The notes beneath the pieces are model-generated. The model ran no database searches and was not told the DNA's origin. It saw only the letters and a program-made list of their open reading frames with translations. Of a stretch of DNA of 52,977 nt, positions 13,065 to 43,540 are shown piece by piece. The translations under genes were made by a program, and so were the position numbers. This DNA is from a virus (Duplodnaviria > Caudoviricetes). The stretch covers positions 1-52,977 of the IMG/VR virus record IMGVR_UViG_3300021375_002481, one strand, 5' to 3'. Each line of letters opens with the position of its first letter. The stretch's first letter is position 1.

Positions 13065-15170
13065 TTATTCTTGTGGAACTTCCGGTGGACCTTCACCCCC
13101 TCCTCCGTCATCAGTACCTTCATGAGTATAAGTTCTTACATAAATATCTATTGATGTTGCTGATGTTACTTGTATTTGGAAAGAACGGTCTGATGTACTA
13201 TTGTTTGTAAGTACTCTAAGAGTTTTATAAACTCCAGTTGTTCCTACTGTTGCTGTTTGGTCTGATGTTGATGTAGTACCCCCACCAGTATTCCATACCG
13301 CATTTGATGTACCTGTTGTAATTTCCCAAGTTACAGTTGAACTATAATCTTGTCTAGCGTAAATATTATATTCTCTATATTGTGATGAATTATTTGATAA
13401 TGTTACTACACTTGTATCACCATTTTCTTCATAACTAACCCCACCATAACTTACATCTAAATTAGAATCTGCTCCTGCTTGTGATAATGAAATTGTGTGG
13501 TCAGTTTCACCTGTTGCTGAAATAGTAACTGTACCTGTTCTAACTCCACCACTATTAGATGTAGCAGTTACTCCAATTGTATGAGTTCCAGCAACACCAC
13601 TTGTTGCACTTAAACTAAAACCAGTACCACTTACTGTGGCTGTCCATGCATAAGAGGTTTCAAGTGTAATATTTTCTGTTTCTCCACCTTGTATAAATGA
13701 AAGTGAAGATGGTGATGCAGTCCAGACAGTTTGAAACAATTGAGTTAATGTTGTGGTATCACTAGCACCACCTGCATTAAAAGTTAAAGTTCGTGTTTTA
13801 TTGGAAGTATCTGTATTGTTTGAGACTGGATAAACATATGCTTGGTATGTTCCACTTGAGGGTGAAGTTACTGATGCTTGGTTTGCAACAATACTTCCTC
13901 CCATCTCCACATATTGATAGGTGTATGTACTTGTTTGGTAAGTATCAACAAATCTCCACTCACTTGTATTACCCAATGTAAATGTTATACCACCACTATT
14001 ATAATTTCCTGCAGTACCAGTTACAGTTTTTGCTACACTTGTTCCACTTTGATTATAATTCCACTCAGCCGGGTCTGTTATATTTGCAGTTGCTGCTGGT
14101 GCACCACCTTGAGAAACTTGTACCGTATGAGTTGATGAATCAATTGAATCTAAAGTTACAGTTACATTTACACTTCTTGTGGATGTACTTGAGTTTGAAG
14201 ATGGATATACATAAAACGTACTATTACTTTCTTTGGTGGATGTAAAACTTGTAGAATCATCTGATATTGTGGAAATATTATAATTTGAAGTTACAGTAAA
14301 GGTAATTCTATCAGTATATGAAGAATCGGTATAAACGAAATTAGAAGTTGAATAATGAACACCTCCTATAAGATTTGTACCTGCTACTGAGAAAGTTGGT
14401 TCTCTTTGTACTCGTACAGTATCAGTTACATTTGCATCTGAAATGTTATCAGGATCAACAGTTACAGTTGCTGTTTTATCAGAAGAAGTAGAATTAGAAT
14501 CTGATTTTACTTCTATAAACTCATCACCAGTACCACTTATGTTAGATGTGGAAAATGAATTACCCGAATTATATATTCTATGAGAAAATCCACTTTCACC
14601 CGATATACTCGCAACCCAAGTTACCACACCTTCGGGGTCAGTTTCTATTTTGTAATGTTCACCTTCACCACCACCATGTCCAAAAGTCATTACACCAGTC
14701 TGTCTTACAATTGTAAGAGTAGCATCATTATCTTCTTGTTGTACTGTTAAGGTTATATTTGTTAAATCAGGTGATTCTAAAGTTATATTCCCACTCCTAC
14801 TTGTACCATCTAAAGGTTGAGCTTGTATAACAATATCAAAAGTATTATCTGTTCCTTCTGAACCAGAACCTAAAGCCACAGTAGCAAATGAAATATTTTC
14901 ATCGTTAATTTTAAAGTTACCATCCGAGGTGTAGGTTATTGTAGAAGTTTGACCACCCTTATCAGCACTGGTTATACTCGTTGGGGATATAGATAATGAT
15001 GTAGCAAAATTATCTAAACTTAATCCAAACAACTCATTCATACCATGGGGAGAGGTTAATCCAAATAATTCTGATGCTGATTCTAAATCTAATTCAGCAT
15101 TTGAACTATTACCTAACTCTTCATTGATATCATCAAATCCTATTGCGTTTCCTTCTTCTGGTAATGGCAT
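13065..15170 (-). CDS. Ser/Thr-rich virion protein with tandem BACON/Ig-like domains; probable fibre-tip adhesin
   Basis: Repeated ~90-100 aa beta modules ending in N-x-x-x-x-R-x-x-x-x-T...V-x-Q (e.g. SPSSLSF...WTATVS...RTGTVTISA...ISLSQAG). TAATG-coupled to the tail fibre gene. Confidence 0.7.
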   Translation of the reverse strand: MPLPEEGNAIGFDDINEELGNSSNAELDLESASELFGLTSPHGMNELFGLSLDNFATSLSISPTSITSADKGGQTSTITYTSDGNFKINDENISFATVALGSGSEGTDNTFDIVIQAQPLDGTSRSGNITLESPDLTNITLTVQQEDNDATLTIVRQTGVMTFGHGGGEGEHYKIETDPEGVVTWVASISGESGFSHRIYNSGNSFSTSNISGTGDEFIEVKSDSNSTSSDKTATVTVDPDNISDANVTDTVRVQREPTFSVAGTNLIGGVHYSTSNFVYTDSSYTDRITFTVTSNYNISTISDDSTSFTSTKESNSTFYVYPSSNSSTSTRSVNVTVTLDSIDSSTHTVQVSQGGAPAATANITDPAEWNYNQSGTSVAKTVTGTAGNYNSGGITFTLGNTSEWRFVDTYQTSTYTYQYVEMGGSIVANQASVTSPSSGTYQAYVYPVSNNTDTSNKTRTLTFNAGGASDTTTLTQLFQTVWTASPSSLSFIQGGETENITLETSYAWTATVSGTGFSLSATSGVAGTHTIGVTATSNSGGVRTGTVTISATGETDHTISLSQAGADSNLDVSYGGVSYEENGDTSVVTLSNNSSQYREYNIYARQDYSSTVTWEITTGTSNAVWNTGGGTTSTSDQTATVGTTGVYKTLRVLTNNSTSDRSFQIQVTSATSIDIYVRTYTHEGTDDGGGGEGPPEVPQE

Positions 15171-18100
15171 TACTTTAACCTTTTTATTTCTTCTTGTAAC
15201 TCATCTACTTTTTTATTCAGTTCTTTTATAGCTTCTATAAGTAAAGGAGTTAGTTTTTCATATCGTACTCCATAATAACCATTTACTGAATTTATTTTTG
15301 TTATATGAGGTACAACCTTTTCTACATCTTGTGCAATTACTCCAATATCTTCTCCCTTAAATTGGTGGATATCTTCATGTCCTTCTTTCCAATTAAAGAA
15401 AACTCCTTTTATTTCATTTATTTTATCAAGTGGTTTGTTTATTTCAATAATATTTTCTTTTAATCGTTCATCTGATGTTGCAAAAGCAGTAATATTACCA
15501 GTTGCAGAAATAGAACCTGTAACTGATAATGCATCACCAGTTGTTGAGGTTGGTATTCTTACTAATTTAGTATCAGTTGTTACAACTTGTAATCCTCCTT
15601 TTGTAATTTCTGTAATTGAATTATCCGATGAACCTACCATCGTTAAGGTAGGTGTACTTGTAATTCTTGGTGCACCATAATAAGCTCCAATTCTAGCACC
15701 AGTACCCGATGGTTCGGTATATGCATTAATATCTACATTGGTTATTTTTGTAATTATTCTATAATACTTACTATCTTCTAAAGTTGCACTTAATGAGAAT
15801 GATTGAGAAGTACTTCCTAAATCTGCTGTTGTACCTGAAGAAGTTTGAGATAATGAATATGACCATTCCTTTACATCAGACCAACTGGTAGAACCATTTG
15901 AACTTTTTTGTAAAACTACTTTGATTTTAGCATTAATTAAATGAATGAAAACTGAAGCCGCTACACCTAATATTTCCGATTCTAAATATTTAGTATTACC
16001 ACTATTAAGTACTGGTGCAGATATCGTTCCACTTATTGTAGCAGTTTTTCCATTATAACCACTACCACCAGTTTGGAATCTAATTGGATTTGATGCAAAT
16101 GTACTTGATGTATCTGAGGTAATTCCACTTACATCATCGTATTCTGGCGTTCCTTGAGTAGAATTAGTTCCAGTAAAATATGCATCATTAGTATTTGCTT
16201 CTGGAATCGTACCAGTTATAGATGGAGTACTAACACTATCAATTTCACTTAAGTCATTTTTGTTTTCAATATTAATCGCACCTGCTCCTACTTTTATATG
16301 AGCATTGTTTGAAGAATCACCTGTGTTAATTACAATACCAGAGCTTGGAGATGTTAGTGTTGTACCTGAGAAGTTAAAACCTGCTATCTCACCATCAGTT
16401 GCATCAACAGTACCTTGAATATTTAGAGTATCAGTACCTGCATTCCAATTTAATGAACCATTTGTACCAGCTAATAAGAAATTACCCTCATCATCCATGT
16501 AGGTTTTCCAACCACCATCATAATAACCTAAGTTTGTATTTCCTATATATAAACCTGCTGATGAAGGAGTTTGTGCTGATAGAACAAAATCTGCCGAAGA
16601 TACATCAGGTCCAAAGTTAAATTCCGAAGCACTTACCAATCCATTGGGTAATTGTTCTGAGCCACTTATAATTCCATCCGGTAATTGTCCACTACCACTA
16701 AGTATCCCATTAGGTAATTGTTCCGAACCACTAACGATTCCACCAGGTAGTTGACCAGAACCACTTATTGTTCCACCTGGCAATCCATCAGTTATATCAC
16801 TTCCAGCCTCTAAGGTAATACTACCTACAATTGATAGACTAGAACCATTCCAACTTAATTTATCTCCAAGTGAGAATATATTAGATGAACCAGATGCAAA
16901 GTAGAATGGTGTATCAGTATTATCGTAATTACCATCACCAACATAAATTCTTGAATTAGTTCCATCTAATGTTATACCATTTTCACCAACTCTAAAAGCA
17001 TTAGAGAAATATCCATTTGCTCCACCAATATTTGGTGAGTAAATAATTCCACTATCTATAAAGGTTGTTCCACTTCCATTTTGTATTGCTGTGGAACCAG
17101 ATATTACATCTGCTAAATCATCATTTACTTGATTATTTAAAGTATTTGTATATGAAAATTGTGATGCAGAATATGCCGATGCTGAAGAAAATGTGTTATC
17201 CGCTGATGTTTGTGCTAATGAAGCCGTTGCTTCAGCCAATGAAGCAGAATTGTAAGCTCTTAATGAGAACAACGATGCCGATGATAAGGTATCTGATACT
17301 GCTCCTGGTGTATTAGAAAATTCTATTGAACCTCTAATAGTTAATGAACTACCATCCCAAAGTAACTCATCTCCCAACAATCCATTTTCTATTGAGAAGG
17401 AACCAGTACCAGTATTTCCATCAATACCTAAGAAAATACCATTACCAACATTATATCCTTGTGTACCAGTTGTTGCTCCTTGGTCTATTGAAATATAAGG
17501 GTAGTTAGTTCCACCAGCGATTGTAATATTTGCTGCTGATGCTGAACCACTATTGTTTGTTCCAACATTTATATTGTTTTGTACATAGGATTCTTTGAAT
17601 ATAGCAAGTTCAGCTGCTACAAAGTTAGAACCAGTTCCTAACTCTTCCCAATAATCTGTTGATGATGATGGGTGTTGGAATCCCCCACTATCAGGTCCAC
17701 TTGAAGTAATTGCTAAATAAAATGTATCGTTATAAAGTACAGAATCTTTTCTTGCCAAAGAACCAGTAGTTACTGTATATGTTCTTGTTGTACTATAATC
17801 GCCAGTGAAAACAAGACCAGGCCCATTCGAACCTTCAAGACCAGGTTGACCATCTGCTCCTTCTCTTACAATATTATAATTAGCAGTTCTTGTTAAGGAA
17901 TATGTATCACCAACTTCATCTTTATAGGATACATTTATTTCTAATGATGATGAATCGGTAGTCATCGTACCTGCAACACCACCATATTCATTTGTTGTTG
18001 GGTTAACTTCGTTTGGTGTAATACCAGAACCAGTCACACCAATAATTTTATAAGTATTTTTAGCTAAACTATTATCATATGATACTTCTTCTCCCTCAAC

Positions 18101-21100
18101 ATAAAGTTTTGTAGAACCAGTTGTAAATGTATAAGAAGATGATGGTATCGTTCCATTAGCAAATGCAGGTAATATACCTCTTTCATTAGTTAAATACAAT
18201 AGAACCCCTCCTATGAAAGAAATAGGGGTAATTGTTGTTATATTATCAACTTGTAGTCCAAATTCATCAGAAGCACTAAATTCATATTGAACTGAGCCGG
18301 TTGTTAAATCCAAAGAAGAACCACTTAAAAAGTAAGTTGCAATACCAGTTGTTGAATTATCAGATAAAACAGTTAATGGAGGAGCAATTCCACTATCTGA
18401 TGAAGAATTTGCAGTAATTGTTTCTGTATTAGATGCTAGGTTTTTTCGTTTTACAGTAATTGTAGAACTTTGACCTGATGGATTTAACGTTCCATCACTT
18501 TTCTTATAGGTAAATACATTTCTATTATTATTTACAACTAAATCTGCAATAGGTTGTCCATCTTCTAATCTAAATAATGTTTCATATTCTTCTAAATTAT
18601 CTGCAGATGCAGTGTACATTATAGAACCTACTTCATAATTAACATCACTACCACTAAAGTTTGCAATAGTAACAATCCCACCATTTTCACCAACAGAAGT
18701 CATACCACCAGGATAAGTTCCACTATAAGAAGATGGTTCTATATATTGTCCAGATGAATCAAATGCAGCTGATGCGTATGTTATATTACCAGTTACATTT
18801 TGTTTATTTGCAACTAATCTAATTTGTTGAAATGCTGGGTTTGCTATGGAACCACTATAAAATCTAAAAGCAGTTCTATCTGATTCAAATGTTAAAAGTT
18901 TTAAAGTTCCTAACGTAACTTTGTTACCACCAGTAAATCGTTTGGTTTGTTCAAGTTTAACAGGTATGTAGTTATTATTAACATCATACATTTCAAACTT
19001 GTAATCAAACGTTTCATCTTCTAAGTTTCTATCTTCTTCTTGTAGTGTTTTAAATATTTTTGGAGAGAATCCCGGCTCAGATGCTGGTTTTAAATCTATC
19101 TTAGCTAATTGCCAACCATCTCCTCTTACTTCAAATCCAAGTTTAGCATTGGAAGATTCAAAATCAGATGTAACTAATGATTCTATGGATTGTTTAGAAG
19201 AATAAGCATTTTCAGCAGTTATAGATTTAATATATTGTTTAAAATCTTGAGAACCTGAAGAACCTGTTAAATAAAAATCAATTGTTTTACTAACAATTGT
19301 ATCAGGATCTTTTAAGCTTTGAGATATAAATATAGGGTCACTTGTTTCTGATGTACCAGTTGTTCCATATGCAGAAGATGCAGTATATATTGCATCAATT
19401 CTTTGTACAATTACTTCATTTGGGGTTGCATCTGAAATATTAAGTACATATGGTATATTTAATGGTGAATTTAAAATACTATCAGTTACACCTGGTTCTG
19501 TTTTATCTCCAATATAATTCCCTGCAGATATTGTTGATGGAAAAAATGGATAATCAGTTACAACATCATAAAATATACTCGATGTAGTTGGTGGAATTTG
19601 TTGAGTAAAATAAGAAGCAGATGTAATCGTTGTTGCTTCGGAACCTGAAAGTGCTAATGTATCTTTAGCTGTTCCTATTGGGTTACCATCGATTTCGGAA
19701 ACTAATCCCACTTCTTCCAAATTAGCATTTAATACTTGTCTTGTTCTATTTGTTCTATAATCTAAATAAATGTAATTATATCCACTACCACTTGTTTCAA
19801 AATCAAGTATAACTTGTGAACCACTCTCTAACATATTCAATGGTAAAGATTGAAAGTCATTCGTATCAGTAGCAATTATTGTATAGTTTAAAGAACCACT
19901 TATTGCCTCTACCGCAGATTGTGAAGTTGCTGAATAGTTATAGAACAACATACCATCAGTATTGAAGTTTCTAAATGCCATTGAATTTCTCCAAATCGTA
20001 TTACCCGATTGATAACCAGATTCAGATACAAAAGATTCTATGTGATATTCAACTGAACCAGTACCCGTTGGTAATGATAAAGAACCACTATCTGTAAGTA
20101 AGGATATAATTACAGAACCACTTAAATGGTCATGTTGATTAGTTGTAAGATTAACATATTCGTTTATTAGATTATTAGATTCTACTGTGGATATATCACT
20201 ATGTATAGAACCACTTGGTACAAATCCTTGCTGTACTACTACATTATCATAAACAAAAGAATCTGCATTGATATCACTCGAAGATGATACAGATGATACA
20301 TTGTAAATCTGTCCACTTGAACTATCGAAAGTATAAACATCAGTTACCTCACCATCATCATTTCTAAATAAGTAAGGAATATCTAATGGTGATTGAAAAT
20401 CCAGTGAGCTGGATTCTGAATCAAATACTGGTGTTAGAAAATCCCTACTACTTACTGTTGCTTTTATAAGGGGATATCCTGCTTCTGTATATAAATTATC
20501 ACCTCCTTGGGTTGGTACTCTTGGAACAACAAAACTTGAAGTAGATGTATTTTGAACCGTACTACCAGATAGTTGAAATAAATCATATAGACTGTATCGA
20601 GTAGAAGATGGTTCCATTTCACCAACAGTAATTCTACCAATAAACACCATTACAGAATTATTGAAATCTGCTTCTACAAGATATGCGTACTGAGTATCAC
20701 CATCTATTGTAAGAACGAGTTGCCCATTCTGTATATTTAATGTACCACTAAAATCAGCTTCTGTTCCGTCTGTGAACTCAATTTCACCTGTATTAAAGTT
20801 CATTGAAGTGATATCGTATGATTCTCCATACAATAAATCACCATTCAATCTATCTAATCTTTGTACATTTATTAAATCTGCATTTAGTGGCTCTACACTT
20901 CTATTGGTTCTATAATCAATATGAACATAGTTGTATCCACTTTGTTCGTAAGGTATTATAACTTGAGAACCAGTTCCACTTGAATGCCAAGCTTGTGGCG
21001 TTTGGTAATCACCAGTATCTATTGCTTCTAATTCATATTCAGTTGAACTTCTAAACGATGATAACTCATCTAAGTAAGTTGAACTATTATAATAATAAAA

Positions 21101-22924
21101 TTTAGCATCACCGCCTATGTTTTCAAATGAAAGTAGTGCGAGTTCTTCTGAACCAGATGTGTAAACTTCTGAGTAAATACTAACATCTTTTGGATTACCA
21201 CTCATTGGTATAGTATATGAACCACTATCTAACCAAACGTTAAGAATTAATTCAACACCACCAAATGAACCACTTATAGATACAACGTTTGCATTACTGT
21301 TTGCATCTGTTTGAACTCTTGATGTTGTACCCCAATCACCACTTGTTGTATCAAACGTAAGTGATGTTGATAAATTAGCATCATAAGTATAATCCGAACT
21401 TACAGATGTAAATACCGAACCTGTTGTATTTTGTGGTGTATCAAAGAATGTTGCTCTTGAGTTATCGTAAATATAATTACGAGTTAAATCTTCAGAACCC
21501 GATTGGATTAATATAGAATTAAATCCAGTTACAGTTGTAAATGATACAGGATATATAGACATGACCGAGGGGTCGTATTGATAATACCTAGTTTCTGTAT
21601 ATGATTCGGATACTACCGTAGTTGGTCCTATTATTACATCATTGATAGAACCACTTACAAGAGTATTAAAATTTAATTGATAATCTACTCCTTGAAATAC
21701 TTCAAAAGTATTATTAGTTTCTATATTAACCTTATCAGTTACTATTGAACTACTTGGAATTACTATTCTAATTGATTCAAATAGTAAATCATCATCAAAT
21801 ACTATTTCACTTGATGAACCACTTATTGATACTGATGAAGTTACCCAACTATTTGTAAATGTATTTTCTGTTAATCTACCTGCTCCACCTTCAATTTCAT
21901 TTCCCGGTTGTGATTCATCAACAAGAAGCTCAGCATTAATATCTTCTACTCGAACTTGTTCTAAAAATTTATAATCAGAAACATCAGAACGAGATTTTCT
22001 ATATATCTTAATATTATCTAAGTTACCAGTAAAGGTATCTATATTTTTAAAAACTAATTTTTGATAAGAACCGGTTACTATTGTAGCAGTACTTGTTCTT
22101 CCATCAAAAAATTCAAATGTACTACTATATACAGATGGAGGAAACTCAGATATCTTATTATCTACCACATAAGGTTTATCTACTAAAACTGTATTTTTAT
22201 TTAAAACTTCTTTTACAGTTGCAGAATATCCTAATGATGGTACAGAAATTATATTTTCATCTATTGAACCAGTAAATCCAGGTCCATCTGTAATTTCTAA
22301 TCTATAAAGAGTTCCTGCTCTCCATGTTCTAACATCAGTACCAAGTGGTGGTATATCAGCCCTACCTTGTACCGAACCACTTTGTGTTACCTCTGGTATT
22401 ATTTGCTGTACTAACCCACCCTCTACTTCTTCAATTGTAATCGAAGGTTTTTTATAAAATATAACAGGAGTTTGGTTTGGTTCATTTTTATTTATGTAAA
22501 TTTCTTTTTCCCACTTAACATTATATGCACCATCCCATTCTTTTGGTATTGGTCTTTTGATACCATCTACATCCTCATATTCTTTTAATTCACCCAGAAT
22601 AGTAATCTTTCCAGGTCCAACTGCGATATCGTTATAAACATGAGTTGAAAGAACAACAGAGTTTCCTTCATAATAATCTGGCGTACCCTTACCCGGCTCT
22701 ATATAAAGAGTTTTTCCATCAACATCTACTAATTCCATTTTAATGGCAGTAGATTCTTTTAAGAAAGGAGTCCCTTCCATCGTAAATAAGTTTTTACCCT
22801 CAGTTAGAGTATCTGGAAACTTAGTTACTTTAAAATATTTTGATTTGGGGTCTGTATCGGTTATAAATGTATTATACCCACTTAGATTTTCAAATTCATT
22901 ACCAATTTTTACTATACAAGCCAT
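15170..22924 (-). CDS. Giant tail fibre protein (2584 aa) with C-terminal Peptidase_S74 intramolecular chaperone
   Basis: C-terminal SDERLKENI...GVIAQDVEKV...YEKLTPLLIEAIKEL followed by a coiled coil. S/T/G-rich beta-type composition. Confidence 0.88.
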   Translation of the reverse strand: MACIVKIGNEFENLSGYNTFITDTDPKSKYFKVTKFPDTLTEGKNLFTMEGTPFLKESTAIKMELVDVDGKTLYIEPGKGTPDYYEGNSVVLSTHVYNDIAVGPGKITILGELKEYEDVDGIKRPIPKEWDGAYNVKWEKEIYINKNEPNQTPVIFYKKPSITIEEVEGGLVQQIIPEVTQSGSVQGRADIPPLGTDVRTWRAGTLYRLEITDGPGFTGSIDENIISVPSLGYSATVKEVLNKNTVLVDKPYVVDNKISEFPPSVYSSTFEFFDGRTSTATIVTGSYQKLVFKNIDTFTGNLDNIKIYRKSRSDVSDYKFLEQVRVEDINAELLVDESQPGNEIEGGAGRLTENTFTNSWVTSSVSISGSSSEIVFDDDLLFESIRIVIPSSSIVTDKVNIETNNTFEVFQGVDYQLNFNTLVSGSINDVIIGPTTVVSESYTETRYYQYDPSVMSIYPVSFTTVTGFNSILIQSGSEDLTRNYIYDNSRATFFDTPQNTTGSVFTSVSSDYTYDANLSTSLTFDTTSGDWGTTSRVQTDANSNANVVSISGSFGGVELILNVWLDSGSYTIPMSGNPKDVSIYSEVYTSGSEELALLSFENIGGDAKFYYYNSSTYLDELSSFRSSTEYELEAIDTGDYQTPQAWHSSGTGSQVIIPYEQSGYNYVHIDYRTNRSVEPLNADLINVQRLDRLNGDLLYGESYDITSMNFNTGEIEFTDGTEADFSGTLNIQNGQLVLTIDGDTQYAYLVEADFNNSVMVFIGRITVGEMEPSSTRYSLYDLFQLSGSTVQNTSTSSFVVPRVPTQGGDNLYTEAGYPLIKATVSSRDFLTPVFDSESSSLDFQSPLDIPYLFRNDDGEVTDVYTFDSSSGQIYNVSSVSSSSDINADSFVYDNVVVQQGFVPSGSIHSDISTVESNNLINEYVNLTTNQHDHLSGSVIISLLTDSGSLSLPTGTGSVEYHIESFVSESGYQSGNTIWRNSMAFRNFNTDGMLFYNYSATSQSAVEAISGSLNYTIIATDTNDFQSLPLNMLESGSQVILDFETSGSGYNYIYLDYRTNRTRQVLNANLEEVGLVSEIDGNPIGTAKDTLALSGSEATTITSASYFTQQIPPTTSSIFYDVVTDYPFFPSTISAGNYIGDKTEPGVTDSILNSPLNIPYVLNISDATPNEVIVQRIDAIYTASSAYGTTGTSETSDPIFISQSLKDPDTIVSKTIDFYLTGSSGSQDFKQYIKSITAENAYSSKQSIESLVTSDFESSNAKLGFEVRGDGWQLAKIDLKPASEPGFSPKIFKTLQEEDRNLEDETFDYKFEMYDVNNNYIPVKLEQTKRFTGGNKVTLGTLKLLTFESDRTAFRFYSGSIANPAFQQIRLVANKQNVTGNITYASAAFDSSGQYIEPSSYSGTYPGGMTSVGENGGIVTIANFSGSDVNYEVGSIMYTASADNLEEYETLFRLEDGQPIADLVVNNNRNVFTYKKSDGTLNPSGQSSTITVKRKNLASNTETITANSSSDSGIAPPLTVLSDNSTTGIATYFLSGSSLDLTTGSVQYEFSASDEFGLQVDNITTITPISFIGGVLLYLTNERGILPAFANGTIPSSSYTFTTGSTKLYVEGEEVSYDNSLAKNTYKIIGVTGSGITPNEVNPTTNEYGGVAGTMTTDSSSLEINVSYKDEVGDTYSLTRTANYNIVREGADGQPGLEGSNGPGLVFTGDYSTTRTYTVTTGSLARKDSVLYNDTFYLAITSSGPDSGGFQHPSSSTDYWEELGTGSNFVAAELAIFKESYVQNNINVGTNNSGSASAANITIAGGTNYPYISIDQGATTGTQGYNVGNGIFLGIDGNTGTGSFSIENGLLGDELLWDGSSLTIRGSIEFSNTPGAVSDTLSSASLFSLRAYNSASLAEATASLAQTSADNTFSSASAYSASQFSYTNTLNNQVNDDLADVISGSTAIQNGSGTTFIDSGIIYSPNIGGANGYFSNAFRVGENGITLDGTNSRIYVGDGNYDNTDTPFYFASGSSNIFSLGDKLSWNGSSLSIVGSITLEAGSDITDGLPGGTISGSGQLPGGIVSGSEQLPNGILSGSGQLPDGIISGSEQLPNGLVSASEFNFGPDVSSADFVLSAQTPSSAGLYIGNTNLGYYDGGWKTYMDDEGNFLLAGTNGSLNWNAGTDTLNIQGTVDATDGEIAGFNFSGTTLTSPSSGIVINTGDSSNNAHIKVGAGAINIENKNDLSEIDSVSTPSITGTIPEANTNDAYFTGTNSTQGTPEYDDVSGITSDTSSTFASNPIRFQTGGSGYNGKTATISGTISAPVLNSGNTKYLESEILGVAASVFIHLINAKIKVVLQKSSNGSTSWSDVKEWSYSLSQTSSGTTADLGSTSQSFSLSATLEDSKYYRIITKITNVDINAYTEPSGTGARIGAYYGAPRITSTPTLTMVGSSDNSITEITKGGLQVVTTDTKLVRIPTSTTGDALSVTGSISATGNITAFATSDERLKENIIEINKPLDKINEIKGVFFNWKEGHEDIHQFKGEDIGVIAQDVEKVVPHITKINSVNGYYGVRYEKLTPLLIEAIKELNKKVDELQEEIKRLK
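16619..16783 (-). repeat. Five tandem 33-bp (11-aa) coding repeats in tail fibre
   Basis: LPGGTISGSGQ / LPGGIVSGSEQ / LPNGILSGSGQ / LPDGIISGSEQ / LPNGLVSASEF. Confidence 0.9.
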
Positions 22925-22945
22925 ATGTGATTCCTATTATACCCA

Positions 22946-22954
22946 TATAAATAT
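22946..22954 (-). promoter_or_regulatory. ATATTTATA putative late promoter for tail fibre
   Basis: 21 nt upstream of the ATG at 22924. Confidence 0.6.
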
Positions 22955-22973
22955 CTCCAAAAAAACTTATTCA

Positions 22974-29076: not shown

Positions 29077-29108
29077 CAAATATACAAAAAATTTATGAAA
29101 TATCCAAA
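29077..29108 (-). promoter_or_regulatory. Bacteroidota-type primary-sigma promoter (TTTG-N20-TATATTTG)
   Basis: Minus-strand TTTG (29108-29105), 20-nt spacer, TATATTTG (29084-29077), 3 nt before the ATG at 29073. Confidence 0.65.
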
Positions 29109-29569: not shown

Positions 29570-30125
29570 AGTTAAAAATTTTGAAATCATTTTTGTACCT
29601 CTCTCGTACCCAATCTTTCATCCACTCTTCTTGATACATATGTTTGTAAAAATTATGTTGATTTAATTGTGGATGTTTATCGTAGATTGAATTACGATTT
29701 AAGTGCGGTAGTGATTCTTGTACTCCTATATTTTGAAAAATATGATTTATATCGTTTTCATAGTTTTCGTATCTACCAACAAAGCTCACCTTTTTATCAG
29801 ATGAACTTCCGTTATTTGTAAAATAGCTTTGGGGAAAGTATAGATAATCGTGTTCGAAAATAGAATCAATAAATTTTCTAACACTTGAGAATCCATTATC
29901 TCTACAATAGTGATAATAGGCAGAAGCAAATCGTGTAAATGGATTTCTAACCATACAAAATATATAGTAATTTTTTATATTATCAAATTTACCTATGTGA
30001 TTGTGAGATTGTGATACAAATTCAGTACCCTCTTGTTTTCTTAAAACCGAAGTAATTGATGTACCTCCAGTTTTAGGTATATGAATATATCCCCATTCTT
30101 TAGAACGGTTAACCAATAAACTCAA
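29553..30125 (-). CDS. PAPS-dependent sulfotransferase (Sulfotransfer_2-like)
   Basis: 5'-PSB YIHIPKTGGTSI, 3'-PB VRNPFTRFASAY, FVGRYEN and C-terminal YKNDFKIFNY. Confidence 0.85.
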   Translation of the reverse strand: MSLLVNRSKEWGYIHIPKTGGTSITSVLRKQEGTEFVSQSHNHIGKFDNIKNYYIFCMVRNPFTRFASAYYHYCRDNGFSSVRKFIDSIFEHDYLYFPQSYFTNNGSSSDKKVSFVGRYENYENDINHIFQNIGVQESLPHLNRNSIYDKHPQLNQHNFYKHMYQEEWMKDWVRERYKNDFKIFNYELDI

Positions 30126-32962: not shown

Positions 32963-33592
32963 TTAATTTGGCTGTACATAAGTAATGGTTACAGGAATAG
33001 TTTGTGAACCACCCGTTTCATTACCATATACAGTAATAGTTGTTTTTATTGTTTGTGTTATACTTGGGTTAGGAACAAATGTAAATGTTTGTCCAACTTC
33101 TATGGCCGCTGTTGTTGTGATTTCTTCTCCTAATGCTAAAGGAACAGTTCCACTTCCTGCTGAAATACCTGAACCTACAACGGAACCTGCGTTTTTATTA
33201 GAGAGAATTATAGTATATCCACTTTGTGTATTACCACTTGGTGAAGTTGTTGGTGTTAGAGAAACTTGACCTGAAGTTTGAGTTACTGAAATAGATGGGA
33301 TACCAAATTCCACCTGTGGAATCTTTTTTGTACCTTTTGGTAAAGTTACCAATTTATATTTCAATACTTGAGTTTCATCTGGTGAAGCTTCTGTTATTGG
33401 GATTGCTTTTATTGCTGCATCATAATAAGCACTACCCTTTGGATGTGCTGGTTCATATAATGAGTAATCTATCTCATCATCTCCCAATGCAAACTTTGTT
33501 ATGTTGATACCCTGACCCGTTGCGAGTAGTTCTCTACCCTTTCTCGTAAGGATAGCATCAACTGTAATTTCTGAATTATCTAAATATGCCAT
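32963..33592 (-). CDS. Virion structural protein (tail-collar/baseplate-like)
   Basis: N-terminal AILTRKGRELLA...ITKFALGD resembles myovirus tail-collar/fibre-attachment N-termini. Confidence 0.55.
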   Translation of the reverse strand: MAYLDNSEITVDAILTRKGRELLATGQGINITKFALGDDEIDYSLYEPAHPKGSAYYDAAIKAIPITEASPDETQVLKYKLVTLPKGTKKIPQVEFGIPSISVTQTSGQVSLTPTTSPSGNTQSGYTIILSNKNAGSVVGSGISAGSGTVPLALGEEITTTAAIEVGQTFTFVPNPSITQTIKTTITVYGNETGGSQTIPVTITYVQPN

Positions 33593-33626: not shown

Positions 33627-33649
33627 AACTATTTTATAAAATTAATTAT

Positions 33650-36600
33650 TTATTTAACATCTACTTCTAAAATAGGTTCACCAGCCCCTCTTCCTGTATC
33701 GGAAACTTTAAGAATATTCGGATTCGTACAGAATGTTTCTATTGGTGATTTACCATCTAAAGTTGTTAAACTTGTTTGTCTTGATGGAGATTTAAATCCA
33801 CGATTTCCGTATTTGCTACCTAATGTACCAACACCCGCTCTTTTACCTCCACTTGCATTTACTCTTTCTACTGCGGTTATAGTTCCACCAAGCTTTCCTC
33901 GTTCTCCAATTTTTGGACCAAATAGTTCTCCAGTTCTTGGGCCAGAGGTAAATCTACCAACTTCAGCAAATACTATATACTTTCTTGTTTTTGTTACTTT
34001 TTGTGTTGTTTCACCTAATGATGCATCATTACTATCTACTTGAATGGGTTCTGAAATTTCAAACTCTTCAGTTACAAGATAAACTTGTTTAGTTTCTTTT
34101 ATTAAAGTACCATTCCCATCTAATTTAGTAATCACAGCGTATCCATTAACTGCAGTAATTCCTGCTAACCCATTTGTTAAACTATCTGGACTTATACCAA
34201 TTTGGTCTTGTGCACCAATTGCCTCAAACTGTTTTAACAATTTATCAACAATTTTAGAATCTGTAATTGTTCCATCAATTAAATCATAAGTTGATACAAA
34301 CGTTGGTGTTAAATTATTAAGTCTACCAATAATATTTGCATAATTACCTTTAAATGTTGGGTTTGATGATGCTATTACACTATCGTATTGATTTTGTAAA
34401 CCTGCTAATTTAATTCTTTCTTTTAATTGTATATCAGCCGGCCATTGTGTTATTGGTATCATAGCAAGTTGCATTGCTTCTCTCAAATCAATTTCTGAAT
34501 CTTGAAATTTAGAACCAAATTCTACTGCTGTTGGTTTTGTTCTCTTAACTTTATTTCTTTCAAGAATATGTGGTTCTATTAATAACCCACTTGTAACAAT
34601 TGCTCTAGCAGGTACAAGAGATTCTAATACTTCAAATAAAGATTGGTCTATATATCTTACTAATTGAATATATTCATATAAATTAAGATTATATCTTTCA
34701 AAATAATAATTTCTTAATTCTCTAAGTTCTTTATATTCGTATTTGTATTCATCACTTGGGTCACCAATATATTGGTCTAATTCAAACTGTCCTATGGATT
34801 TTAAAATATCCATATTAACCTCTTTTACAGGTGAAAAGAATAATCCTAATTTGTTTGTATCAATCGGAGATGTATCAAATGATTTTTTAGTTGAACGGTC
34901 TCTATATGAAAGTGTTAATCCATTTTCTATATCTTCACTTAATCCTTGTTGTTCTTCGAATCTAAATTTTTGTGAAACATTAAACCCACTTGAAGGAACA
35001 TTTGCTGTTACAGTTCTTTCATATGTAGTATAATGATATGGATAACTACTATTACTATCAAAGTTAGATGCGGTTACGAATGGAACTAAATATGATTCAT
35101 TAATAGATACATTTTTAATTGCGGTATCTACATTTCTATCTTTGGGATATTCAAAATCTAAACGAAGAAGTAAATCTTCTGTTGAGGATGAGTGGTGATT
35201 TCCATCAATTGCATCTGGCATCAATGTGTGATTATCTACTCGTGATTCTGATAATGGATATGTCCAATATCTAAACTCATCTATCGAACCAGTAAACGTA
35301 GAACCATCTCCAATCTTTAATGTAGTTTCGGTTTGCCAAATATGATTCTCAACTTCTATTGAAGCAGATACTTCACTTCTAATCCTACCTTGAAATGCTT
35401 CTTTACCTTTTACTGTGAAGGTGTTATTACTTTTTTCAACTACTATTTGAGTATATTCATCATTAAAGAATGGAAAAGCTGATGAGGTTACCATGTATGC
35501 CGATGAACTATCAGCAACAGTCAGTGTCAGTACTCCATTTGTTCCATTTGTATGTTGTACACCAACATTCCATAATGAACTCGTTACGAATGTTTGGTCT
35601 TGTCTTTTATCAGAATTAACTCTAATTTCTACTGCATTCGGATAATCAGATGTTCCACTATATTGTTTCCATGGAACTAATACTGATTCAGACCCACTAA
35701 TGTTTAATGCTGCTGTTCTATCTTCAAATGAAAACTTAGATACACCACCATCAGCATTTCTTGGTCCACCAAACTCCATAATAGTTAACATTGATGATGG
35801 AACCCCATAACAAGCAAGAGCTGCTTTAACTGCTCTACTTGAACCTTTGTGTTTTAAAAGGTATGGTATATTATTAAGTAATCTTCTCCAAACCTGATTT
35901 TGTATTTCTTTACCAGTTAGATTAGATACTGAAGTACCATCAGATGTTTCACCAAAAGCATATTCCCAAAGTGATTGTGCTTTTGCAGGAACTTTAGTAT
36001 CCCACCCTAATGATTCTAACATCTGAGAAAGTAAAGAATCATTTATACCAACATCATATTTATGTTCTAAGTTTTTCTTTTCAGCAATAGCTTTAGTGTA
36101 TAAATAAAGTACATCAAAGTGATGTCCCATCATATTAAAGAACATTTTAAATTCTTCAGAATCTTCAGAATTTTGGATGTGTAGTGGTAAATTGTTTACT
36201 AAATAATCTTTATTATATAAATCATAATTTTGTGCATTATAGCTAACACTATTATACCAATCAGTTGCATCGCTGGAATCTGAAGCGGAAATTAAATTAC
36301 CACCTGCTCCCGGATATGTTAATCCATCTGCAGATGAACTTGTAAATAAGAATGTTTCAAATGCATCAAAATTATCTTTTACTTCTTGAACAGATTCAGA
36401 AGTTCTGTTAATTTCATTTTGTAAAGTTACAGAACCAGTATTAAATGAACCTGACTCTAATTTTTGTATTTTATCTTCGTAAAATTCTATTAATTTAATT
36501 TTATAAATAAAATTATTAACTCTTTCATTTGCAGAAGAATATTTTACAAAATTATTCCATGCCCAAGTTGAATCTGTTTCAACTAAAAGAGAACCACTAA

Positions 36601-39037
36601 CTTCTTTTGATGAACTTACAAATGGTATAGTTAATTTTTTTAAATCAAACCCACTACCACTTACATATTCTGTTAGTAATTTTGTTGATGAAGATGAACC
36701 ACTTGCTATTAAATCATCATATAATTGGTATCCAATATTTTCTCCACCACATACACCTGTTCCAAAGTTCGGTGATAATTCGATACAATCTTCAAATTCT
36801 TCATTTATAATGGTAATTTGTTCTACATATGGAATCGATTGAATCTTAGATACCCAAATTTGTTCATTTGGCTGTACCTCTCTTGGAAGTGGTTCATATA
36901 GTTTAAATACAAGAGTTTTTTCTTCACTTACTTTAGTTCGTTCACCAGTATCTTCACTAAATTCATATTTAGAAAAGGTTTCAAAATCAGTATCCCAAGA
37001 AGCAATTACTTTATTGTTAGCTTCTCCAAAGTGCATTAAGTGAGTTAAATATTTTGAAGAATCTCCTTTTAGTATATCTGTATCAAACATACTACATAAT
37101 GTTTCTTTAATATCTCTTAAAACAACATCTCTTCTTAATTTAATATTACCCTTATCAAAGTTAATTTGAATTGTTTCTGTTTTACCTTCCGTTTTAGAAT
37201 CACCCTCTTCGTTATAAGGAATTAATTTTAATACAAATGTTGCAACATCTAAATCTTCATCTAAACTATTTCCTGCTTTTTTTAATACATCCTTAATATT
37301 AAAAGACTGTACTCCATCTGCTGGTCTTTTTGATGCTAATTTATATTTATCAATTACTTCATTAATGTATATATCTACATAATTTGTATTTATTGAAGTC
37401 CATGAAATTTCAAAATCAACATTATACCCTTGATAATCTTTACCTGTTATTACTTGAGGATACTCTATTGATATGATATCAGGACCTGGTAATAAATCTT
37501 TTCTTTCAGCTCTAAATTTTATTGGAACAATATTTCCACTACCATCTGTATCACTTACTGCTTGAAAATATGCAGTATAATTACCATTTCCATTAAACAA
37601 TTCAGATTGATTTATGGTAACTACACCACTTGTGTTTTGTTTAGATATAGTATCACCAAATGTAAAGTTTACATAACTTGCATTAGTAGAACCAAACCTT
37701 ATAGTAATATCATCACCATTGGGTTGTCCTTCTCCAAAATAAATTATATTAGAATCACCTTCAAGTTGAGCCGTTGTACTTACATCCTTTGGACCAGCAG
37801 CGGTAGTTCCTCTTGTTTCGGTTGAAGGTACATAATAAGTTTCTCTTCTGTACTTATATGTTGGAGTATCTTTTGGTGGGTCTGGAACTGCGGTTTTACT
37901 TACTACAACTTTTAATTTATATTTACCAACCGCTAATGGTTGTGAAAACGATTTATCGTTACCACTTGATAGTAATCCCCCTCCTATATTAAATAATTCA
38001 TATTGATAATTGCAAGTACTATCTGTTCCTGATAATGTTACAGATAATGCTGAACCAATAGAGTTATCATCTACTAATTCTCCACCAGTTTCACCCGCTT
38101 TACCTTTTCCTGATATACTTGTGGATTTATCAGCACCAGTCGTTCTATCAATAGGGTTTAATGTTACATTTGCTGTAACATTATCTGGTGCTTCCAAATC
38201 AATATCAACTAAAATTCCTTTTGGAATATCTGGAATTATTTCTTCTTTTTTAAACTTATATATACCTTTAAATGATGCACCCGATTTTCCTTGTCTTATT
38301 GTTTTTACAATTCCACCATTATTTCTTATTACTACCTCATATAAATTACCACCTGCAGTGTTGGTTACATCCGGATTTGTTTGAGTTGATATTTGAAATT
38401 TATCAGTAGATATACCATATCCTCCGGCTTTTGCTGTAAAAGTTTTTGTTTGAGTAAAATCAGACGAAGACCATGTGGTTTTTGTTTTTCCGTTATTACT
38501 TACATCAAAAGTAATGTTTGGGTCAGAAGCCCAAGTTAATGAAAATGTAAAATGAATTGGAATTGTTGGAAATGATAAACCACTAAAATCCAAATCACCA
38601 AAATCTAAATCAATGTAATCGTTGAGCTTTCCGATATTTCCAATACCAAGTTGATTGAATCCATTTAAGGCTGGGTTTACAATTGGTACAATGGGAGCTG
38701 GTTGTGATATTGGTGCTTGCAATGCACTTATCGGACCAACTGGTAGTGGATTATTCTGTGCGATTTTATCTAAAGCTTCTTCCGCGGATATACTAAAATT
38801 TCTACCATCATTAGTGTTTAAATCAGTAATATTTGCATCTGCAATTCCAAATGTATTATTAAAGGCGGGTTGAGGAGTAGTAGGTAATGATTGAGAAAAC
38901 GCACCACCCATACTCATTGAGTTCATACCACCCGAACCAAAGCTACTTACTGGGTTCCAGCCATATCCAGTCCATTCGTATTGTCCATCGAATGAAATTT
39001 CACCTCGTTGTGTACCTTTATAAGTTGGTATAGCCAT
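33650..39037 (-). CDS. Large baseplate wedge-like structural protein with LamG-like domain
   Basis: LLSQMLESLGW...IPYLLKHKGSSRAVKAALACYG resembles P2 gpI / T4 gp7-type wedge segments. LamG-like LKIGDG...FTGSIDEFRYW. Confidence 0.6.
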   Translation of the reverse strand: MAIPTYKGTQRGEISFDGQYEWTGYGWNPVSSFGSGGMNSMSMGGAFSQSLPTTPQPAFNNTFGIADANITDLNTNDGRNFSISAEEALDKIAQNNPLPVGPISALQAPISQPAPIVPIVNPALNGFNQLGIGNIGKLNDYIDLDFGDLDFSGLSFPTIPIHFTFSLTWASDPNITFDVSNNGKTKTTWSSSDFTQTKTFTAKAGGYGISTDKFQISTQTNPDVTNTAGGNLYEVVIRNNGGIVKTIRQGKSGASFKGIYKFKKEEIIPDIPKGILVDIDLEAPDNVTANVTLNPIDRTTGADKSTSISGKGKAGETGGELVDDNSIGSALSVTLSGTDSTCNYQYELFNIGGGLLSSGNDKSFSQPLAVGKYKLKVVVSKTAVPDPPKDTPTYKYRRETYYVPSTETRGTTAAGPKDVSTTAQLEGDSNIIYFGEGQPNGDDITIRFGSTNASYVNFTFGDTISKQNTSGVVTINQSELFNGNGNYTAYFQAVSDTDGSGNIVPIKFRAERKDLLPGPDIISIEYPQVITGKDYQGYNVDFEISWTSINTNYVDIYINEVIDKYKLASKRPADGVQSFNIKDVLKKAGNSLDEDLDVATFVLKLIPYNEEGDSKTEGKTETIQINFDKGNIKLRRDVVLRDIKETLCSMFDTDILKGDSSKYLTHLMHFGEANNKVIASWDTDFETFSKYEFSEDTGERTKVSEEKTLVFKLYEPLPREVQPNEQIWVSKIQSIPYVEQITIINEEFEDCIELSPNFGTGVCGGENIGYQLYDDLIASGSSSSTKLLTEYVSGSGFDLKKLTIPFVSSSKEVSGSLLVETDSTWAWNNFVKYSSANERVNNFIYKIKLIEFYEDKIQKLESGSFNTGSVTLQNEINRTSESVQEVKDNFDAFETFLFTSSSADGLTYPGAGGNLISASDSSDATDWYNSVSYNAQNYDLYNKDYLVNNLPLHIQNSEDSEEFKMFFNMMGHHFDVLYLYTKAIAEKKNLEHKYDVGINDSLLSQMLESLGWDTKVPAKAQSLWEYAFGETSDGTSVSNLTGKEIQNQVWRRLLNNIPYLLKHKGSSRAVKAALACYGVPSSMLTIMEFGGPRNADGGVSKFSFEDRTAALNISGSESVLVPWKQYSGTSDYPNAVEIRVNSDKRQDQTFVTSSLWNVGVQHTNGTNGVLTLTVADSSSAYMVTSSAFPFFNDEYTQIVVEKSNNTFTVKGKEAFQGRIRSEVSASIEVENHIWQTETTLKIGDGSTFTGSIDEFRYWTYPLSESRVDNHTLMPDAIDGNHHSSSTEDLLLRLDFEYPKDRNVDTAIKNVSINESYLVPFVTASNFDSNSSYPYHYTTYERTVTANVPSSGFNVSQKFRFEEQQGLSEDIENGLTLSYRDRSTKKSFDTSPIDTNKLGLFFSPVKEVNMDILKSIGQFELDQYIGDPSDEYKYEYKELRELRNYYFERYNLNLYEYIQLVRYIDQSLFEVLESLVPARAIVTSGLLIEPHILERNKVKRTKPTAVEFGSKFQDSEIDLREAMQLAMIPITQWPADIQLKERIKLAGLQNQYDSVIASSNPTFKGNYANIIGRLNNLTPTFVSTYDLIDGTITDSKIVDKLLKQFEAIGAQDQIGISPDSLTNGLAGITAVNGYAVITKLDGNGTLIKETKQVYLVTEEFEISEPIQVDSNDASLGETTQKVTKTRKYIVFAEVGRFTSGPRTGELFGPKIGERGKLGGTITAVERVNASGGKRAGVGTLGSKYGNRGFKSPSRQTSLTTLDGKSPIETFCTNPNILKVSDTGRGAGEPILEVDVK

Positions 39038-39061
39038 TTCTACTTTTCTCTCCTATTAGTA

Positions 39062-39070
39062 TATAAATAT
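39062..39070 (-). promoter_or_regulatory. ATATTTATA putative late promoter
   Basis: 24 nt upstream of the ATG at 39037. Confidence 0.6.
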
Positions 39071-39098
39071 CTTTATAGTTTATTTATTTACTTTACTT

Positions 39099-41132: not shown

Positions 41133-41145
41133 CTTTATTTTTTAA

Positions 41146-42474: not shown

Positions 42475-42475
42475 T

Positions 42476-43540
42476 TTATTTCTCTATTGTAAAAGTTAAA
42501 TCCTTATCATCAAAATATTCTATAACACCATCTCTATTAGTTTTAATCTGAATATAGTAATCTCTATTATATTCCCAATTTGTTAAATCTAATTTGAAGA
42601 AGTTACCATTTGAATCACACGAAACTTTTGTGTAATCATCATCAAATGGAATAACTATCTCATCAGTTAATACATCTTTTATCTGATAATAAGTAGTTGA
42701 TGGTAAAAAGTATAAATCTGTATATGAGTATTCATTAGTATATGTTTTAAGAGGATATTTTTCTCTTCCGAAAACTTTGATTGTAGGTTTACTTCCACGC
42801 TTGTATCTAGTCTTTAATCTTTTGAATGTTACATGAATATCATCAGAGGTAAGTTCTGTTAGAGAGCCAGTAGAGAATGAAGAATCATCCCAACCTATTC
42901 TTAGTTTCGGTTGGTATATTGTATTTGTTTCTTTTGAGAAGAATTTTAATTGCCCATAATCATTAGTATCATTTTCTAATGATGTATCGTGTTTTAAAAT
43001 AAATCCCTCATTTGGTAGAGTTCCATCAATCCAAGCATCCATAGTTGTTTTAACATCCATTTCTATATCAGATGATTCGTATGAAAACGATTGTGTTGAG
43101 AATGAACCAGTGAACCAAGTTCCACCTTTACCATTAAATGAACCAGTTGTATCAGATGAATGTTCCTCTAGTGATAACCAATCTTGTCCTGTTCTTACAG
43201 AGTTCCAAGATACGCCATCAGTTGTAATATCATCAAAACGAGTACCAATACCCATTTCCCATGATTGTGTTACTGCATATGCATAAATTGTATAATCGAT
43301 TGGAATTTCAGAAGATTCACATTCTTTAAGAATCATATCTGCTGCACTCATTGTTACTTCACCACTTGCAATAGATTGTGAAAGTGGAGTTGTTTCAAAC
43401 TTAATTACAGAATGTGCAATATCTTTTAAACTTCCATAGTAAGTTTTAGAAACTTCTAAGATTTCATCAAATCCAGTATTCTGAGATGGTTGTTGTAAGT
43501 AAATAGTTGCATCTTTAGATGCTGTTACGAATTGATACAT
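42476..43540 (-). CDS. Structural protein with DNRLRE-like domain
   Basis: ASKDATIY...NTGFDEILEV, VTQSWEMG, NEGFILK and FFSKETNTIYQPKLRIGW. Confidence 0.55.
   Translation of the reverse strand: MYQFVTASKDATIYLQQPSQNTGFDEILEVSKTYYGSLKDIAHSVIKFETTPLSQSIASGEVTMSAADMILKECESSEIPIDYTIYAYAVTQSWEMGIGTRFDDITTDGVSWNSVRTGQDWLSLEEHSSDTTGSFNGKGGTWFTGSFSTQSFSYESSDIEMDVKTTMDAWIDGTLPNEGFILKHDTSLENDTNDYGQLKFFSKETNTIYQPKLRIGWDDSSFSTGSLTELTSDDIHVTFKRLKTRYKRGSKPTIKVFGREKYPLKTYTNEYSYTDLYFLPSTTYYQIKDVLTDEIVIPFDDDYTKVSCDSNGNFFKLDLTNWEYNRDYYIQIKTNRDGVIEYFDDKDLTFTIEK

Follow-up and report, generated by a model that had tools for sequence, protein, structure and literature searches.

Why should a tripeptide, Ser or Thr followed by Gly and Ser ([S/T]GS), recur so densely in several tail proteins encoded by one phage? 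The question is raised by a 53-kb phage fragment from IMG/VR (Caudoviricetes; record IMGVR_UViG_3300021375_002481, 52,977 nucleotides, about 26% complete by CheckV), which is called the window below. An earlier note on this DNA had drawn attention to the tripeptide and proposed that it is the acceptor site for glycosyltransferase (GT), radical S-adenosylmethionine (SAM) and sulfotransferase enzymes encoded nearby. The analysis presented here indicates that the motif is a property of a whole clade of phages. Its best reading, which we hold only tentatively, is a putative O-linked surface modification by enzymes common to that clade and not by those encoded beside the fibre.

Motif excess in five tail proteins

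The comparison involves the following open reading frames (ORFs) of the window, with lengths in amino acids (aa).

15170..22924, minus strand: tail fibre, 2584 aa, with a C-terminal Peptidase_S74 chaperone domain and 39 [S/T]GS (PHROG tail-fibre matches at aa 2167-2584; Pfam PF13884 at aa 2484-2540)
30359..31633, minus strand: 424-aa tail protein, family unassigned, paralogue of the 411-aa ORF, seven motifs (58 orthologues aligned)
31710..32945, minus strand: 411-aa tail protein, family unassigned, six motifs (60 orthologues aligned)
33650..39037, minus strand: giant baseplate-region protein, 1795 aa, seven motifs at aa 779-1249 (orthologues with 7-13 motifs)
42476..43540, minus strand: 354-aa protein adjoining the gene of the gp6-like wedge, three TGS motifs (37 orthologues aligned)
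13065..15170, minus strand: Ser/Thr/Gly-rich 701-aa protein with a weak BACON match (22 bits against the Pfam cut-off of 25), the motif-poor internal control
32963..33592, minus strand: 209-aa tail-module protein used as anchor, no motif against 0.40 expected (71-99% identity over 80 loci)
43540..46011, minus strand: gp6-like wedge (677 aa) and gp25-like protein (143 aa) of the inner baseplate, no motif in either (PHROG baseplate wedge matches)

Each of the 35 ORFs was compared with 1000 composition-preserving shuffles of its own sequence. Pooled, the five tail proteins hold 62 [S/T]GS against about 11 expected. The fibre contributes 39 of them (26 SGS and 13 TGS; 6.8 expected, z-score 12.8), a number reached by none of the 1000 shuffles, and the excess is repeated in the 424-aa protein (7 against 0.45), the 411-aa protein (6 against 0.89), the giant protein (7 against 2.4, p 0.012) and the 354-aa protein (3 against 0.46, p 0.006). 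The other 30 ORFs together carry two SGS or TGS where 8.1 are expected, and the BACON-like control has one SGS against 3.0 expected [S/T]GS, together with seven [S/T]GT against 3.5. Among tripeptides with a non-trivial expectation, SGS (39 against 6.2) and TGS (23 against 5.1) are the sole ones strongly over-represented in the pooled proteins; the wider pattern [S/T][G/A/S]S occurs 66 times in the fibre, with 19.7 expected.

Local composition is ruled out as the cause, as the signal persists both in shuffles within blocks of 40 residues (fibre z-score 13.0) and in shuffles that preserve dipeptides (fibre 39 against 18.9, reached in none of 500). Under the latter null the observed counts were reached in 0 of 500 shuffles for the 424-aa protein, 5 for the 411-aa protein, 9 for the giant protein and 46 for the 354-aa protein; the signals of the last two are weak alone, yet they recur in orthologues. 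The hand counts that the earlier note gave for the fibre and the two paralogues were exact on recount, and its figures for the BACON-like control were reproduced. The recurrence it had seen in the giant and 354-aa proteins is above expectation in both, and its argument that composition alone is insufficient holds in the shuffling check it had itself proposed.

Repetition within or between proteins does not account for the excess either. Self-BLAST of the fibre gave no internal repeat at E<1e-3, and cross-BLAST of the five proteins recovered a single similarity, over 65 residues of the two paralogues (411 and 424 aa), whose families hhalign relates at 98.6% probability. Among the 354-aa, 411-aa and giant families hhalign found no relation (probability at most 1.4%), and neither BLAST nor hhalign found a shared domain that could carry the motif between proteins. 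With the exception of the 411/424 paralogy, internal repeats and shared domains are ruled out by these comparisons, which agree with the earlier remark that the motif occurs in unrelated sequence contexts. A short tandem repeat of 11 residues, SGS[GE]QLPxGI[VLI], is present in four copies at aa 2054-2097 of the fibre and holds four of its 39 motifs.

The motif is spelled in a stereotyped manner, mostly A[GC]T-GGT-TCN, and the peptide pattern might be generated by an artefact of codon usage or by a signal at the DNA level, the word A[GC]TGGTTC. Frame 0 of the five ORFs contains 36 copies of this word, against two elsewhere, and AGT makes up 77% of the Ser codons at position 1, compared with 18% of Ser codons outside Ser-Gly/Gly-Ser pairs. 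However, outside the motif AGT is also the codon of 64-74% of the Ser that precede a Gly (Fisher p 0.53 against the motif), and GGT that of 77-82% of the Gly that precede a Ser, likewise over 80 related loci. Within the five ORFs the word is never found in the other frames and once on the opposite strand, and two cultured relatives, Flavobacterium phage immuto and Microcystis phage Mel-JY01, use other codons for the motif. The frame, strand and codon-context tests and the codons of these relatives refute a nucleotide-level signal, whose probability we put at practically nil; the AGT-GGT-TCN stereotypy arises from a general Ser-Gly/Gly-Ser codon-pair bias of the lineage. Across the window and the related loci (L006-L085), this bias gives AGT for 63-74% of Ser before Gly (18-19% elsewhere), ACT for 49-78% of Thr before Gly (36-38% elsewhere) and GGT for 77-82% of Gly before Ser (45-49% elsewhere).

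Distribution of the motif among related phages

Relatives of the 209-aa anchor protein number at least 598 in IMG/VR, and 80 of these related loci were analysed. Their 768 ORFs contain 1820 [S/T]GS against 403 expected and 258 [S/T]GT against 357, and the excess falls in the same orthologous slots as in the window. The syntenic tail proteins of immuto and Mel-JY01 are equally enriched. None of the 29 tested proteins of T4 is enriched, and the baseplate and fibre regions of the outgroup phages show nothing comparable (BCD7, 2 motifs against 4.4 expected; PA5oct, 8 against 10.0; CM1, 14 against 8.1). A 484-kb megaphage is weakly enriched, though its wedge protein is as close as that of immuto.

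The restriction of the motif to particular proteins is most evident in the complete 214-kb genome of one relative (G003), where 10 of the 209 ORFs hold 89 of the 109 motifs, with 14.6 expected, and the remaining 199 ORFs share 20 against 27.7 expected. Five of these ten are the orthologues of the five proteins of the window; the remaining five comprise the tail sheath, another fibre, a head-tail adaptor and a pair of proteins without assigned function. Nine of the ten are annotated or syntenic as parts of the tail or neck (fibres, baseplate periphery, sheath, neck), and one is unannotated.

The sheath permits a comparison within one fold. The sheaths of five clade members contain 30 motifs against 5.7 expected, whereas six outgroup sheaths contain 3 against 3.3. 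Together with the negative or weak results for T4 and the outgroup regions, this rules out a generic feature of myovirus fibres or sheaths. In the clade sheaths, 29 of the 30 motifs lie in the variable part (29 against 5.7 expected). The conserved C-terminal core has one against 0.74 expected, its Ser, Thr and Gly being too scarce for a comparison, so that an apparent avoidance of the core carries no weight. The sheath of the lineage is long (770-812 aa; in G003 it is encoded at 3535..5913, minus strand, of locus L120, 186000-205999) and has a large variable region between conserved ends. The megaphage encodes two sheath paralogues of 824 aa each.

The motif is thus confined to one clade of aquatic large myoviruses, comprising the lineage of the window, immuto and Mel-JY01. 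It arose independently in at least four mutually unrelated families, and the sheath and neck adaptor are likewise enriched. It is borne by the fibres, by baseplate-region proteins lying beyond the gp6-like wedge, by the sheath's variable domains and by the neck adaptor. Variable inserted domains of tail sheaths face outward in published structures; for the motif-bearing parts at large we infer the outward orientation and do not derive it from a measurement. The motif has arisen in unrelated folds and is absent where other phages have the same fold; both facts suggest that some agent common to the clade reads it, and its restriction to tail and neck argues in the same direction. A search of the published literature found no title or abstract on a Ser-Gly-Ser motif in phage tails.

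Shape, conservation and structural setting of the motif

A profile of the motif was computed on 635 distinct ORFs from the 80 loci. At position 1 Ser is enriched 5.1-fold and Thr 3.9-fold, and at position 2 Gly is enriched 4.5-fold and Ala 2.2-fold. At position 3 Ser is enriched 4.5-fold but Thr stands at 0.7-fold, and the residue preference described in the earlier note (S or T, then G with A or S tolerated, then S rather than T) is borne out. At positions -2, -1 and +1 hydrophobic residues make up about 50%, the background being 31%; acidic residues are absent from the most enriched ones at -2 and +1, and in the lineage set Asp reaches merely 1.3-fold at -1. Written out, the motif reads hydrophobic-hydrophobic-[S/T]-G-S-hydrophobic, and it is the peptide on which selection acts.

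Over four orthologue families pooled, the conservation of motif Ser is 0.67, compared with 0.39 for other Ser. The difference is found in the 411-aa family (0.81 against 0.53), the giant protein (0.74 against 0.35) and the 354-aa family (0.95 against 0.54). Motif Ser in the 424-aa family is no better conserved than other Ser. In this family all 58 sequences carry one to nine motifs, the motif starts span 34 alignment columns, and three sites are conserved (in 55, 36 and 31 of the 58), with the remaining ones turning over. Five fibre homologues of 53-74% identity keep the whole tripeptide at 31 of 37, 16 of 23, 16 of 20, 19 of 39 and 7 of 12 aligned sites (49-84%), and the replacements are mostly SAS, SSS, SQS or TAS.

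The model of the 424-aa protein (predicted local distance difference test score, pLDDT, 74) is all-beta; two of its seven sites lead into a strand, one lies in a strand, one at a strand end and three in loops. The fibre model reaches a pLDDT of 49, its poor quality being due to a shaft (aa 400-1100) with merely 10 relatives among 1.84 billion representative proteins, and of the 11 sites in its better regions, 6 form hairpin turns or run into a strand. A Foldseek search of the 424-aa model against the PDB gave nothing below E 0.04, profiles of the 424-aa and giant proteins matched no PDB sequence, and the protein atlas placed the 411- and 354-aa proteins solely in viral hypothetical clusters.

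This setting raises a serious rival to any modification, namely that [S/T]GS is an unmodified structural element, a compact polar turn or strand-start unit reused in beta-rich tail domains and kept by folding and packing without an enzyme or partner. The hydrophobic flanks, the strand-associated sites in both models, the small residues retained in substitutions (SAS, SSS, TAS) and the strong positional conservation in three of the four families are all in its favour, as is the persistence of the motif in phages without GT7, radical SAM paralogues or sulfotransferase (see below). A preference for turns nevertheless leaves several observations unexplained: the same sheath fold is motif-rich in this clade only, the fibres of T4, PA5oct, BCD7 and CM1 show no enrichment, unrelated families with no detected shared domain to spread the motif have converged on it, and Thr is disfavoured at position 3 while being accepted at position 1. 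On balance we consider a purely structural role possible but somewhat doubtful. Packing along a trimer axis was also considered as the role of the motif and was dropped because the sheath turned out to be motif-rich.

Short motifs repeated along a phage fibre have a precedent in the tip of the T4 fibre protein gp37, where iron-binding HxH motifs recur along one trimeric fold. The spacing, with key residues at i and i+2, is similar, but [S/T]GS also abounds in a neck protein and in the variable sheath domains, and T4 proteins show no [S/T]GS excess.

Convergence, clade specificity and tail restriction are equally what docking by a trans-acting reader would produce. In such a case the motif would serve as a contact site without chemistry, read by a clade-specific assembly chaperone or decoration protein, or would make weak contacts with glycans of the environment or the host surface. 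The tail module does hold very conserved proteins of unassigned role, such as the 209-aa anchor, but nothing links the anchor to the motif, no candidate partner was identified, and three residues are a small site for specific protein docking; we regard this alternative as improbable. No gene of the tail module is more conserved than that of the anchor, whose first 264 bases share about 70% DNA identity with immuto and Mel-JY01, and no relative of it was found in Pfam, PHROG or the PDB.

Candidate enzymes and the case for tail modification

If the motif is a modification site, which enzymes would act on it? The window has a G+C content of about 31%, all its large ORFs lie on the minus strand, and gp25-like and gp6-like proteins indicate a baseplate of the myovirus type. 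The baseplate genes are followed by tail proteins without a known family, a DNA-metabolism block (primase, SbcC-like) and the 2584-aa fibre. The genes downstream of the fibre encode a methyltransferase, a GT2-like protein, five radical SAM proteins in tandem and two fusions of GT7 with LamG, and the gene of the 424-aa protein is followed by Sulfotransfer_2 and SegE-type GIY-YIG genes. The candidates named in the earlier note, with their neighbours, are as follows.

404..3525, minus strand: two proteins with GT7 N and C domains fused to LamG (Pfam PF13733, PF02709, PF13385)
3559..10247, minus strand: five tandem N-terminal-twitch radical SAM paralogues (NCBIfam NF033640, 288-395 bits against a cut-off of 170)
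10244..11856, minus strand: GT2-like protein of 281 aa (PF13704, 25.8 bits against a cut-off of 27.5) and methyltransferase of 259 aa (PF13578, 43.5 bits)
29553..30125, minus strand: Sulfotransfer_2 protein, 190 aa, just downstream of the 424-aa protein (PF03567, E 4e-16)

The Glyco_transf_7N and 7C domains score above the gathering threshold in both fusions (83.2 and 71 bits at 404..1843; 79.7 and 66 bits at 2035..3525), and PF03567 matches the 190-aa protein over profile positions 4-252 with 60.3 bits against a cut-off of 22. The eukaryote-like GT7 catalytic domain fused to a LamG/ConA-like lectin domain is present in two or three copies in 13 of 17 long relatives. The copy number of the radical SAM gene varies from 0 to 9 in related contigs, and in the relative G001 a further copy lies just upstream of the glyco-island described below; cellular relatives of this enzyme (11 loci, best identity 27%) are uninformative. 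The gene at 29093..29590 (minus strand) carries the PHROG label 'NAD synthetase', which looks wrong, since Pfam finds a SegE-type GIY-YIG endonuclease domain (E 3.7e-19); a GIY-YIG gene occupies the equivalent position in Mel-JY01. The BACON-like 701-aa protein has no homologue among the 80 related loci.

According to the earlier note, the enzymes beside the fibre (GT7, radical SAM and sulfotransferase) use [S/T]-[G/A/S]-S as their acceptor, which would account for its enrichment. The position of the cassette downstream of the fibre agrees with this, as does its frequency in the close lineage, where 13 of 17 long contigs carry GT7 and 14 carry radical SAM genes, all three complete genomes being among the carriers, and Sulfotransfer_2 adjoins the 424-aa protein in 39 related loci. 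As a primary cause, however, the proposal is contradicted by immuto and Mel-JY01. Their complete genomes lack GT7 (in a search whose positive control on the window works) and Sulfotransfer_2, and they contain no homologue of the radical SAM proteins (the sole radical SAM gene of immuto is QueE) or of the GT2-like protein, while their orthologous tail proteins are as enriched as those of the window. The note itself had listed equal enrichment in relatives without the enzymes among the results that would refute its proposal, and for the enzymes it named this is the result obtained.

The chemistry also fits poorly. The best matches of the five radical SAM proteins to peptide maturases reach 16-29 bits against cut-offs of 400-725, and as all five belong to NF033640 their identity as radical SAM/SPASM peptide maturases of the type acting on peptides that ribosomes make and that are modified after translation (RiPPs) is ruled out. 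The fibre has a single Cys, which makes thioether chemistry unlikely. GT7 enzymes such as B4GALT7 extend glycans and are not known to initiate them on Ser. Similar cassettes of glycosyltransferase and radical SAM genes beside the tail-fibre genes of marine myophages are attributed to host-surface modification in passages of PMC7029224. It is therefore very unlikely that the earlier proposal holds as stated: the genes beside the fibre are not the cause of the motif, and at most they would elaborate the product in the window's own lineage.

The proteoglycan linker, to which the note had compared the motif, shares with it a Ser-Gly dipeptide, xylosylated in proteoglycans, and enzymes of the GT7 family. 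Proteoglycan sites are marked by acidic flanks. The flanks here are hydrophobic, the motif persists in relatives without GT7, and the analogy is a poor one; a Pfam scan covering 20 of the window's 35 ORFs found no initiating xylosyltransferase, the window itself representing about 26% of the genome.

A separate sugar cluster in immuto and Mel-JY01 offers better candidates. This glyco-island of the clade comprises a PD-(D/E)XK nuclease, a GT4, a diverged GT4 and a GT2. The tandem GT4 pair (44-54% identity) is present in all five complete clade genomes and in none of four outgroups (T4, PA5oct, BCD7, CM1). Both members are generic GT-B enzymes; the best solved relative of the first is glycosyltransferase B736L (3oy2), and the second is a weak paralogue of the first. 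Relatives of the second GT4 in the 80 loci listed all belong to the same lineage (57-100% identity), with no carrier outside the clade among the matches listed. The weakly enriched megaphage keeps the nuclease and the first GT4, lacks the second, and has no GT2 at the syntenic position.

The surroundings of the island differ between phages. In the megaphage (L212; LR756508.1, 299000-317000) the nuclease and GT4 are followed by a cytidylyltransferase, a sialyltransferase-like GT29, a GT25 and a fucosyltransferase-like GT10, which is a eukaryote-like glycan toolkit. The immuto island (L101, 46000-62000) contains two WecE-type aminotransferases, a nucleoside diphosphate-sugar epimerase and a NeuD/PglB/VioB-like acetyltransferase (155 bits, just under the cut-off of 160.8), a gene set that suggests synthesis of an acetamido-deoxy sugar.

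In the reading that we favour, a clade-wide agent would read [S/T]GS in tail proteins, and the motif Ser would receive an O-linked modification, probably a glycan, on assembled or folding tail proteins. Glycosylation would be the most likely kind of such a modification, and the likely enzymes would be those of the glyco-island, namely the nuclease-associated GT4, its diverged partner and the GT2. The enzymes beside the fibre might then elaborate the product in the lineage of the window. The broader suggestion of the earlier note, that the tail carries a modification sequon, draws circumstantial backing from the convergent and clade-specific distribution of the motif and from this separate set of glycosyltransferase genes.

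Bacteria offer a precedent for glycosylation of this kind. According to passages of PMC4358343, serines of the autotransporter TibA, 'but not threonine residues', are heptosylated in ...NSGG... and ...VSGT... contexts, so that Ser-specific glycosylation in Ser-Gly surroundings is by analogy conceivable here. In the TibC and AAH systems, acting on TibA and AIDA-I, O-glycosylation takes place in the cytoplasm, at many Ser of a surface protein rich in beta structure (PMC4358343, in the same passages). The preference for Ser over Thr at position 3, the Gly within the motif and its placement at strand boundaries resemble TibA. In contrast to TibA and AIDA-I, each built of repeats as one beta-helix, the putative substrates here belong to several unrelated phage tail families. 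No enzyme of the TibC/AAH type was seen, though no search aimed at that family was made. A tandem GT4 pair is also shared with the GtfA/GtfB O-glycosylation of serine-rich repeats, but the immuto pair does not match the GtfA/GtfB models.

Self-glycosylation of phages is already known. Mycobacteriophage glycosyltransferases reportedly decorate structural proteins of their own virions, as Freeman et al. in 2023 are said to have found. The acceptors are said to be C-terminal extensions of capsid and tail-tube subunits of small actinobacterial siphoviruses, and the modification has reportedly been demonstrated experimentally. 'Extensive glycosylation' of virion proteins is mentioned in a passage of PMC12582341, whose reference list includes Freeman et al. 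2023. Phage-encoded glycosyltransferases are common to both cases (two GT7 and the GT2-like protein in the window; the GT4-GT4-GT2 island in all five complete clade genomes), but the site here is a dispersed tripeptide and its modification putative. Glycosyltransferase and radical SAM cassettes beside the fibre genes of marine myophages (PMC7029224) and variable multi-GT clusters in jumbo phages (PMC7824862) are a further parallel. The passages concerned propose a role at the host surface and report no tail-protein motif. Unlike those cases, two separate clusters are found here, one near the fibre that is specific to the lineage and another, at a different place, that the whole clade has.

Several points weigh against O-linked modification by the clade's enzymes. 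The modification is so far a prediction from sequence. The major head protein is not enriched (2 against 0.57), and the motif is missing from the Ser/Thr/Gly-rich BACON-like protein right beside the fibre. Hydrophobic flanks and placement at strand boundaries fit an ordinary structural turn, and both structure models are of limited confidence and inform on secondary structure only. The immuto GT4 pair matches neither GtfA/GtfB nor any other protein-glycosylation equivalog, giving only faint unrelated NCBIfam matches (E at most 0.001). The first GT4, which adjoins the nuclease, reaches the Pfam model 'GT4 in conflict systems', and the island may act on DNA. It may also act on host polysaccharide, as comparable clusters are read in passages of PMC7824862 and PMC7029224 as modifying host polysaccharide or surface. 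Finally, the correlation with the GT4 pair is confounded by descent, as it consists of one clade and one contrast, the megaphage.

A more far-reaching version would have the clade coat the whole tail exterior (sheath, neck, baseplate rim and fibres) with O-glycans at [S/T]-G-S. The GT4 pair would start the glycan, and lineage-specific sets would diversify it: GT7, N-terminal-twitch radical SAM and sulfotransferase in the lineage of the window, GT29, GT10 and GT25 in the megaphage. This complete scheme appears unlikely. If it were true, it would give the first example of a phage tail coated with glycans at a defined sequon.

Whatever the function of the motif, its density in the sheath is a simple marker of the clade, and as two clade members, immuto and Mel-JY01, are in culture, the question is directly testable. 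A three-residue motif that originated independently in unrelated tail proteins and separates the clade from other phages with shared folds is a strong signature of an unrecognised function common to the virion surface. If that function is glycosylation, phage self-glycosylation, known from mycobacteriophage capsids, would extend to the entire tail of aquatic phages that are widespread, its sequon would be readable from sequence, and the glycosyltransferase clusters usually assigned to the remodelling of host surfaces would gain a role.

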